From NCBI RefSeq assembly GCF_030013595.1, contig NZ_CP122768.1: a stretch of DNA of 64,000 nucleotides; one strand, 5' to 3'. The position numbers and the translations under genes were made by a program. The notes beneath the pieces are model-generated. The model searched no databases, had not been told where the DNA came from, and worked only from the letters and a program-made list of their open reading frames with translations. Positions 14,053-15,339 of the stretch are shown here, in pieces (the first letter of the stretch is position 1; each line of letters begins with the position of its first letter). The stretch is from Escherichia coli (GTDB lineage: Bacteria > Pseudomonadota > Gammaproteobacteria > Enterobacterales > Enterobacteriaceae).

Positions 14053-14187
14053 TTAACGTTTGCTGGTAAAATTGAATAAAAAAGGGGACGCAAAAACGCC
14101 CCCAAGAGTTTAGAGTAATAAATAACAGAAGGTTAAAAAGAAAAGACAAAATGTCTTTCTTAATGCAGTGACGTGAGGGCGTCACCC

Positions 14188-14230
14188 ACATGTTGTGGGA
14201 GATAAATATCTCCCACAACATATCTTTTTT
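14188..14230. terminator. Bidirectional intrinsic terminator (perfect 15-bp-arm palindrome) between Q and the porin gene
   Basis: atgttgtgggagata / tatctcccacaacat followed by T6; A-run on the other side. Confidence 0.55.
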
Positions 14231-14241
14231 AATAAAAAGAT

Positions 14242-15339
14242 TTAGAACTGGTAAACCATACCGACAGCAACAATATCGTCGGTGTTTATACCAAGACCTC
14301 TGGTGAAATCATTTTTGTCAAGCAGGTTGATTTTGTAATCAACGAAAGTAGACATATTTTTGTTGAAGTAATAGGTTGCGCCTACATCAACATATTTAAC
14401 TAAGTCTTGATCGTCCCATACTCCGAGATCTTTACCTTTAGATTGCAGGTAAGCCACGGACGGACGCAGCCCAAAATCGAACTGATATTGTGCAACAGCC
14501 TCAACGTTCTGAGCTTTATTAGCGACGAAGCGATCAGCAAATACCGTCATATTCTGGGTTTCAGAATAGGTAGTGGCCAAGTAAATGTTGTTAGCGTCAT
14601 ATTTCAGACCAGCGGCCCAAACTTCTGCATTTTTACCGGAAGCAAATACTCCAGGAAGAACTTTCCCTAGATTAACTTGAGTGTCGGTACGGTCAGATTT
14701 CGCATAAGTTGCACCAATACCGAATCCTTCGTATTCATAGGTAGCAGAGAAACCGAAGCCATCACCGTTACCTTCGGTATAGTTATCGAGCTTGCTACGA
14801 TCGTTTTTGCCTTGGTACTGAGCAGCAAAGTTCAGACCATCAACCAGACCGAAGAAGTCGTTATTACGGTAAGTTGCAACACCAGTTGCACGCTGAGTCA
14901 TGAATACGTCGGTTTGAGTCCAGGTATCACCACCGAATTCTGGCAAAACGTCAGTCCACGCACCGATGTCGTATGCTACACCGTAGTTACGGCCATAATC
15001 GATGGAGCCGTAGTCACCGAATTTCAGGCCAGCGAATGCAAGGCGAGTTTTATCCCCGGAAGAACCTTGAGATTCAGCACGGTTGCCTTTGAATTCATAT
15101 TCCCACTGACCGAAACCAGTCAGTTGATCATTGATTTGGGTTTCGCCTTTGAAGCCCAGACGAGCATAAGTTTTGTCACCATCGTGTTTATCGTTAGAGG
15201 AGAAGTAGTGCTTGGCATTAACTTTTCCGTACAGATCCAGTTTGTTGCTGTCTTTGTTATAAATCTCTGCTGCTTGAGCAGACATCGCCATTAATACTGA
15301 CGCAGCTACAGCAGAGATTGCCACTGTTAATTTTTTCAT
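14242..15339 (-). CDS. Outer-membrane general porin (OmpC/OmpF/NmpC family)
   Basis: Signal peptide [23 protein letters not shown], porin beta-barrel with C-terminal ..VGMVYQF. Confidence 0.85.

Follow-up and report, generated by a model that had tools for sequence, protein, structure and literature searches.

Two phage-borne porins are the closest described relatives of the gene analysed here, a minus-strand porin gene beside the Q antiterminator gene of a lambdoid prophage, located in a 64,000-nt stretch of Escherichia coli contig NZ_CP122768.1 (hereafter the window, to which all coordinates refer). Lysogens of phage PA-2, whose origin is also porcine E. coli, reportedly gain the porin Lc (protein 2) and lose OmpC and OmpF, and PA-2 itself is said to adsorb to OmpC. 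In the DLP12 prophage of E. coli K-12, the genes are arranged as quuD–ipeX–nmpC–(SRRz promoter)–essD, and the porin gene nmpC is interrupted by IS5. IpeX is a 167-nt RNA that is produced as part of the porin transcript and controls OmpC (PMC12197685); it lowers both OmpC and OmpF (PMC3617542, PMC7177473), and reviews describe a mode of action other than simple pairing (PMC3617542). The S-R-Rz operon of DLP12 is under the control of a Q-type antiterminator, and its own regulatory region has been cloned as a fragment of -121..+650 (PMC7918800).

The porin-plus-IpeX module has thus been a known system since PA-2 and DLP12, and the window holds one more intact copy of it. The best explanation of the locus as a whole, which we hold with good confidence, is a porin–IpeX moron situated between Q and the late promoter (PR') in a lambdoid prophage of porcine enterotoxigenic E. 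coli (ETEC). A sequence-only reading of the same DNA had taken the porin for conversion cargo lying in the path of late transcription; its observation was partly confirmed, and its interpretation is partly supported.

An intact NmpC/Lc porin gene convergent with Q

The following features make up the convergent pair.
14242..15339, minus strand: intact NmpC/Lc porin gene (open reading frame list, PF00267, PDB-chain and pairwise protein alignments)
15271..15339, minus strand: part of the porin gene coding for the signal peptide (residues 1-23)
13669..14052, plus strand: Q antiterminator gene, 127 aa, QuuD-like, Q21/PF06530 family (PF06530 match, Q21 structure match)

A complete porin of the OmpC/NmpC family facing Q had been proposed, and this was borne out. 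The open reading frame (ORF) at 14242..15339 encodes 365 aa without truncation or frameshift, aligned with the Porin_1 domain over its full length (PF00267, profile positions 1-337 of 337, E=1.7e-154), and its stop codon lies 189 nt from that of Q. Residues 24-365 matched the mature OmpC, OmpK36, PhoE, and OmpF chains of solved structures end to end; since the alignment to mature chains begins at residue 24, residues 1-23 are assigned as the signal peptide. The C-terminus (...VGMVYQF) ends in an aromatic residue (Phe), as is usual for the family, and the beta-barrel assembly signal is present. The protein therefore shares full-length homology, signal peptide, and C-terminal Phe with OmpC, OmpF, and PhoE, the 16-strand trimeric barrels of the Porin_1 family.

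Pairwise alignment identified the kind of porin. The protein was 94.5% identical to Lc of phage PA-2 over all 365 residues (20 substitutions, gap-free), 96.8% identical to K-12 NmpC over the 346 codons ahead of the K-12 IS5, and 89.6-95.3% identical to the porins of other induced lambdoid phages. In contrast, its identity with the host porins of K-12 was 66.8% for OmpC and 62.4% for OmpF, with 22-25 gap positions. These values indicate that the phage-borne gene is an NmpC/Lc orthologue and not a copy of host ompC. The GC content was 42-49% in the porin gene and 32-36% in its flanks, compared with 50-54% in the neighbouring genes.

The resemblance to quuD–nmpC of DLP12, which had been noted from the arrangement, also held. 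Gene order and strands, the 189-nt Q–porin intergenic length, the four-hairpin 3' untranslated region (UTR), and an 85-bp PR'-like block between the porin and the next rightward gene are shared, and the window Q is 86% identical to K-12 QuuD. On the other hand, the window porin is intact without IS5, its IpeX region is only ~72% identical to that of DLP12, and the downstream genes are phiP27-like (65-aa ORF, methyltransferase, tRNA, two holins, and M15 endolysin), whereas DLP12 carries S-R-Rz. The locus shares with PA-2 (J02580) the classical lysogenic-conversion porin, the 3' region, and a similarly placed CRP site; however, PA-2 has another phage backbone, and its regulatory DNA upstream of the -35 cannot be aligned with that of the window except for the CRP-like motif.

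The porin 3' UTR is an IpeX homologue that includes the palindrome

Downstream of the porin stop codon, three overlapping features were distinguished.
14190..14231, plus strand: perfect palindrome and T-run, probable intrinsic terminator of the Q (early) transcript (terminator scan, tail ATCTTTTTTA)
14103..14074, minus strand: canonical intrinsic terminator of the porin/IpeX transcript (scan, stem GGGGGCGTTTTTGCGTCCCC, tail TTTTTTATTC)
14074..14241, minus strand: porin 3' UTR, homologue of the IpeX small RNA (sRNA), four hairpins, the last being the porin terminator (homology, folding, covariation)

The sequence-only reading had assigned a perfect palindrome to the porin as its terminator. The palindrome exists (14190..14221, a perfect 14-bp stem with a 4-nt loop; a hand estimate, not a tool output, puts the chance expectation of such a repeat in 64 kb at ~2e-4), but the assignment did not stand. 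The T-run ATCTTTTTTA lies on the plus strand (14222..14231), and the minus-strand sequence that follows the palindrome, GUGGGUGACGCC, contains no U-tract. DLP12, mEp332, and others have kept both the hairpin and the T-run, which probably end the Q (early) transcript. The terminator of the porin strand was found at 14103..14074, ~140 nt beyond the palindrome, and its stem pairs are conserved with covariation. On the minus strand, we read the palindrome hairpin as one that is read through to become hairpin 1 of an IpeX-like 3' UTR, and the two convergent transcription units would overlap by ~150 bp.

An IpeX sRNA homologue between the palindrome and the porin terminator had been overlooked. From the porin stop codon to the terminator (14241 down to ~14076), ~165 nt form four hairpins. 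The region aligned with the quuD–nmpC intergenic region of DLP12 at ~72% identity over 184 nt (E=7e-13 to 9e-12; both regions are 189 nt in total), and an invariant core, AACCUUCUGUUAU-UAUUAC, was found across the IpeX-region alleles. The four-hairpin layout is common to the window RNA (minimum free energy -58.6 kcal/mol, z=-9.4) and the K-12 IpeX-region RNA (-62.9 kcal/mol, z=-9.5). In an alignment of ten alleles, compensatory changes were observed in 5 of the 31 consensus pairs, located in hairpin 2 and the terminator. The alignment also contains G-U pairs, in hairpin 2 and the outer portion of hairpin 1, which would turn into A-C mismatches if the opposite strand were the RNA; they fit a minus-strand RNA. 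Taken by homology and structure, the porin 3' UTR can be regarded as an IpeX homologue.

An Rfam scan of 13600..18300 (E<=1) gave no IpeX match, as Rfam contains no IpeX model, and returned only tRNA matches and chance matches; a match of an IsrM fragment on the palindrome was dismissed as a meaningless chance match. RNAduplex calculations with IpeX and the K-12 ompC and ompF leaders yielded whole-length spurious duplexes with energies near those of shuffled controls. The IpeX-region allele of the window (14045..14250) is rare: in a search of 5,426 genomes, 14 of the 2,504 matching records showed identity of at least 80%, and the rest showed 60-80%, despite Q and the porin on either side being 86-97% identical to the common alleles.

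Promoter region of the porin

Upstream of the porin gene, a promoter-like block and a CRP-like site were located.
15390..15427, minus strand: porin promoter-like region with TTGAAA (15427..15422), 19-nt spacer, TATATT (15402..15397), and candidate start G at 15390 (sequence reading, alignment)
15456..15471, minus strand: CRP-like site CGAGATCTTGATCACA (8 of 10 consensus positions)

A sigma-70 consensus scan called no porin promoter because the spacer is 19 nt; the block was found by alignment instead. The TTGAAA-19-TATATT arrangement is conserved in all nine aligned loci, with AATATT as the -10 of K-12, and the porin leader, including AAGG as ribosome-binding site, is likewise common to these loci. 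The K-12 counterpart of this region (-199..-1) has promoter activity, with transcription starting at a G (PMC11677980). The CRP-like site (15471..15456) is centred ~73 bp upstream of the candidate start; UMNF18 carries a perfect CRP motif, TGTGATATTGATCACA (TGTGA-N6-TCACA), at the equivalent alignment position, and the PA-2 record J02580 annotates a CRP/CAP site upstream of lc at ~109-129 nt, compared with ~117-132 nt here. A conserved porin promoter is therefore plausible from these alignments. Since the gene is whole and such a promoter, with its non-canonical spacing, appears to be present, the objection that the porin might be truncated or promoterless fails.

A candidate late promoter lies beyond the porin

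The elements on the far side of the porin were as follows.
15577..15665, plus strand: probable Q-dependent late promoter cassette consisting of PR', leader, and the terminator tR' (promoter scan and comparative conservation)
15580-85, plus strand: -35 TTTACG of PR', followed by the palindrome TACGTACGTA
15602-07, plus strand: -10 TATGAT of PR'
15608-15642, plus strand: leader
~15639-15663, plus strand: weak hairpin and T-run (tR')

Late transcription had been expected to cross the porin in antisense. This expectation was not upheld, since the candidate PR' (15577..15665) is not adjacent to Q: it is found across the porin from it, 1,525 nt past the Q stop codon (15577 vs 14052). The promoter scan called TTTACG-16-TATGAT at 15580..15607 on the plus strand, and the 35-nt leader at 15608..15642 is invariant and occurs once in the window, where chance would give 0 copies. 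The ~85-bp block at 15577..15661 forms a conserved island amid otherwise unrelated flanks in K-12, mEp332, avian pathogenic E. coli (APEC), and phiP27. It is 84.7% identical in K-12, where it lies ~120-205 bp upstream of essD, and in mEp332, and it was found in UMNF18, C5, PEC41, and MB06231. The block is also present in the porin-less loci of APEC E19035, phiP27, SfII, and an Stx1a phage, in the last of which it lies ~430 bp upstream of stx1A. Both porin-bearing and porin-less relatives have the 65-aa ORF (WP_000917767.1) after the cassette.

The spacing of Q in related phages agreed with this position. In ~25 IMG/VR contigs, Q, again a 127-aa protein of this family, ends 39 bp ahead of the leader, in the classical compact Q-PR'-tR' layout with no cargo. 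In class II phages (defined below), the reverse gene that comes next has its stop codon at a distance of 3-30 bp from Q, too little for a promoter in between. The 250-aa Q of SfV could not be aligned with the window Q family; SfV shares only the part from the terminator onward, and this terminator, annotated as rho-independent, lies 106 bp after Q.

The -35/spacer motif of PR' co-varies with the class of Q, while the leader stays constant. With class I Q (window, K-12, C5, and MB06231; Q 82-87% identical), the spacer motif is TACGTACGTA; with class II Q (45-47% identical), it is GCGTACGC; phiP27 (class III) has GGAATTCC, and class IV has GCGGTCCGC. An A-tract follows each of the four motifs. 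The spacer palindrome of the window is located at 15586..15595, and counterparts were seen in the loci L002, L014, and L104-L223. Comparison suggests that the allele-specific palindrome and A-tract over the -35/spacer are a candidate Q-binding element (QBE), with a design unlike the TGAGCA direct repeats of phage 21.

The window Q belongs to the same family as Q21 of phage 21 (PF06530, E=5.8e-54), and its residues 8-89 matched the solved Q21 chains 6p18/6jnx (E=1.9e-9). The cassette also follows the logic of PR'21 (6P18, 6JNX), with a promoter, a conserved initial transcribed region, and a nearby terminator. However, the window Q has 127 aa compared with 162 aa for Q21, the helix-turn-helix residues differ, the palindrome TACGTACGTA and A-tract stand in place of the TGAGCA repeat, and the cassette is 1.5 kb from Q, whereas that of Q21 is adjacent. 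A sequence search for the phage-21 QBE repeat TGAGCA (PMC6606751) found none in 14053..14190 or 15560..15610, and the phage-21 model is therefore not directly transferable. The promoter scan called no sigma-70-like plus-strand promoter in 14053..14190.

A tR'-type hairpin with a T-run follows the -10 at ~25-50 nt, with stem covariation across phages; relatives have a clean stem (CCCGCCG...CGGCGGG). A second CRP site annotated in the 1986 PA-2 record (L006 1730..1750) falls within the conserved PR' leader (window 15614..15635; GTGGTTACTTCGTCACAC, right half TCACA). Considering the promoter call together with the conservation across backbones, 15577..15665 is most likely the late-promoter cassette of this Q family. 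Because this places PR' past the 5' end of the porin, the two promoters face away from each other within a spacer of 32% GC, and the porin and the late operon are divergent.

Spread of the Q–porin pair

The 4.5 kb around the porin were 100% identical to prophages in the porcine ETEC strains ETEC1732, ETEC1734, ETEC4085, and rl0044. The annotated order in ETEC1732 is replicative helicase, hypothetical protein, Q, "porin OmpC" (reverse), 65-aa ORF, DNA methyltransferase, tRNA-Gly, two holins, M15 endolysin, P27-family terminase, and HK97-type head genes. The Q–porin pair occurs in identical order and strands in DLP12, PA-2, 434B, mEp332, and many phages derived from ECOR strains and faeces. An opposite-strand porin followed class I Q in 80 of 80 IMG/VR loci, wherever the contig reaches far enough, and homologues of the Q–porin intergenic region were detected in 2,502 of 5,426 complete E. 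coli genomes. The distribution thus marks the Q–porin pair as a mobile module.

The gap between Q and PR' as a cargo slot

In related phages, the gap between Q and PR' measures 39 bp without cargo or 860-3,012 bp with it and has at least 20 distinct fillings, nearly all of them on the minus strand. The loci of this comparison were L104-L223 (IMG/VR), L002 (2548..4655), and L014 (250..1479). Among 10 representative cargo proteins from the gap, 7 matched PADLOC families (PDC-S20, PDC-S33, HNH effector/PDC-M68A, HEC-04/ATPase-Toprim, NsnA, and PDC-M53A), and the phiP27 occupant (L22 protein) matched PD-Lambda-1 (2e-89). Pfam and PADLOC searches with three reverse genes found in place of the porin in the APEC, Stx1a, and SfII phages gave no significant match. 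These matches suggest that the porin occupies a slot used in its relatives mainly for minus-strand anti-phage defence genes.

The porin unit itself has the anatomy of a moron, with a promoter-like block, a terminator, GC contrast, and a slot that is empty or otherwise filled in relatives. The idea of lysogenic-conversion cargo, voiced from the arrangement of the genes, is in keeping with this anatomy, which comprises a promoter region and a terminator belonging to the unit, AT-rich flanks, and the lack of the unit in related phages. In its fixed position and its many unrelated cargo cassettes with mostly defence matches, the slot resembles the P2/P4 hotspots (PMC9122126) and the E. coli pangenome selection (PMC9519451); it differs in being located between Q and PR' of lambdoid phages and in that one occupant is a porin with an sRNA, not intracellular immunity. 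No specific description of a defence hotspot between Q and PR' was found in the literature, in a search that was not exhaustive.

The tail-tip protein resembles that of an OmpC-dependent phage

The prophage encodes a J-like tail-tip protein (1132-aa ORF, 34811..38209), whose last 300 aa (37307..38206) are 81% identical to those of phi330, a siphophage shown experimentally to need OmpC (PMC12502783). The same C-terminus is 96-97% identical to J of PhiR30_1, Turner, and PhiR29_2, all of which carry the porin module, and 9 of the best 11 non-Stx phage matches to it were also in the porin/IpeX match lists.

Neighbouring genes and other features

Two genes follow the PR' cassette.
15788..15985, plus strand: first ORF downstream of the PR' cassette, 65 aa (ORF list)
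16136..17182: DNA methyltransferase gene, after the 65-aa ORF

Further downstream, ARAGORN and Rfam called a tRNA-Gly(UCC) in a tRNA region covering 17364..17436 and 17443..17517. The adjoining tRNA-like sequence was scored by Rfam (45.9 bits) and had no ARAGORN call; it may be a decaying tRNA copy, and UMNF18 and MB06231 have an annotated tRNA-Thr upstream of tRNA-Gly at the corresponding position. The lysis cassette (18203..19306) encodes the holins Phage_holin_8 and Phage_holin_3_7 and an M15 peptidase endolysin, unlike the S-R-Rz of DLP12 and of the lambda-like module carriers. Upstream of Q, an IS3-family element of ~1.3 kb (9922..11228; transposase ORFs 9964..10854 and 10851..11177, minus strand) is extra in comparison with ETEC1732 and interrupts a DnaC-like ATP-binding helicase-loader gene ~80 bp in.

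Proposed working of the unit and alternative explanations

The layout can be written as Q -> | <- IpeX-porin | PR' -> late genes, in which Q would act in trans on PR' at 15577..15665. Porin and IpeX would be transcribed leftward from their own promoter with the CRP-like site and would end at their own terminator just short of Q. The perfect palindrome would stop polymerase running rightward from Q, and the late promoter would fire away from the porin; with these two arrangements, a lysogen could express the cassette without collision with either phage operon. We infer that the cassette is expressed in this strain, and that it both places NmpC/Lc in the outer membrane and, through IpeX, reduces OmpC and OmpF, as suggested by homology with PA-2 Lc and DLP12 IpeX. 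Such a porin swap would alter permeability and would remove the OmpC receptor of many phages, probably including relatives of the prophage itself. Going by the PA-2 work and the IpeX reports, the mechanism is most likely such a swap, with altered permeability and loss of the receptor class that the phage itself uses. In uropathogenic E. coli (UPEC) CFT073 at 37 C, nmpC copies are up and ompC is down (PMC12890032).

A wider proposal, which we judge possible and slightly on the doubtful side, is that porin–IpeX is a receptor-swap occupant of a defence hotspot between PF06530-type Q and PR', removing OmpC in lysogens of OmpC-dependent phages, and that the PR' palindromes represent a new type of Q-binding element.

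Several observations weigh against the moron reading or parts of it. The 19-nt spacer of the porin promoter is non-canonical, and some E. coli reportedly have a quiescent nmpC (cited in PMC3333887). The IpeX allele is ~72% identical to the characterised K-12 RNA, so its function may differ. With the IS3-family insertion, this prophage copy may be replication-defective or decaying. The assignment of PR' is a probable one drawn from comparison between phages, and the tR' hairpin of the window, AACCAGCCGCCAAACGGGGTT followed by T6 (15639..15663), is imperfect and no more stable than shuffled sequences (z=-0.8), which could mean leakier late transcription in this prophage.

The arrangement that had been expected, with PR' directly after Q as in lambda, 21, and 933W, would make the palindrome at 14190..14231 tR' and let Q-modified polymerase read antisense through the porin. 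The plus-strand hairpin and T-run stand 138 nt past the Q stop codon, about where a lambda-type tR' would be, and viable phages such as 434B work with 2.3 kb of nmpC::IS5 between Q and S. Nevertheless, we regard this arrangement as very improbable: neither a sigma-70-like plus-strand promoter nor the TGAGCA QBE was found in 14053..14190, class II relatives leave only 3-30 bp between Q and the reverse cargo gene, and the G-U pairs of outer hairpin 1 and hairpin 2 fit a minus-strand RNA. In addition, 15577..15665 is the only element that every backbone retains, that varies in step with the Q allele, and that directly adjoins Q in compact genomes. An intact but silent porin, carried along in a quiescent or decaying state as nmpC is in K-12 and E. 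coli B and currently without effect on the surface, would be in line with AT-rich flanks of 32-36% GC, which are typical H-NS targets, with the non-canonical -35/-10 spacing and the report that nmpC is not expressed in many strains (PMC3333887), and with the IS3-family insertion in a replication gene of the prophage. We consider this unlikely, since every part of the unit, from the ORF with its signal peptide to the promoter-like block, the CRP-like site, the IpeX hairpins, and the terminator, is undamaged and conserved, and the module is intact in 80 of 80 sampled class I phage loci where the sequence allows. Furthermore, the -10 TATATT is nearer to the consensus than the AATATT of K-12, whose promoter is measurably active (PMC11677980), and CFT073 expresses nmpC strongly at 37 C (PMC12890032).

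The cassette could also be expressed and yet be selected for host physiology (permeability, tolerance to heat or antibiotics, or growth on poor carbon sources under cAMP-CRP) and not for phage exclusion. The CRP-like site here and the CRP sites annotated for lc agree with such a role, and NmpC has been reported to aid heat resistance in AW1.7 and to be thermoregulated in UPEC (PMC12890032). This role is compatible with phage exclusion and is not an exclusive alternative to it. Against it as the sole selected role, related phages fill the slot mainly with anti-phage defence genes, the J tail-tip type resembles that of an OmpC-dependent phage, and IpeX specifically lowers OmpC/OmpF (PMC3617542, PMC12197685). 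It is, in our judgement, the less probable account, with a better claim than a silent porin. The porin–IpeX moron between Q and PR' therefore remains our preferred explanation.

Implications for lambdoid prophages and porcine ETEC

As found, this copy of the porin is of little weight, being a known conversion module that is widespread in E. coli genomes. The by-products of its analysis, which come from comparative evidence, are a corrected transcription map, a divergent IpeX allele, the allele-specific PR' palindromes, and the defence-rich slot between Q and PR'. The corrected map would show how leftward cargo can sit beside Q without transcriptional conflict, by means of a rightward terminator and a PR' placed beyond the cargo, and the variable, defence-rich slot could be mined. 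For the porcine ETEC lineage, if NmpC/Lc and IpeX are expressed, the module would mean a changed porin make-up, with changes in antibiotic permeability, vaccine antigens, and sensitivity to OmpC-dependent phages.

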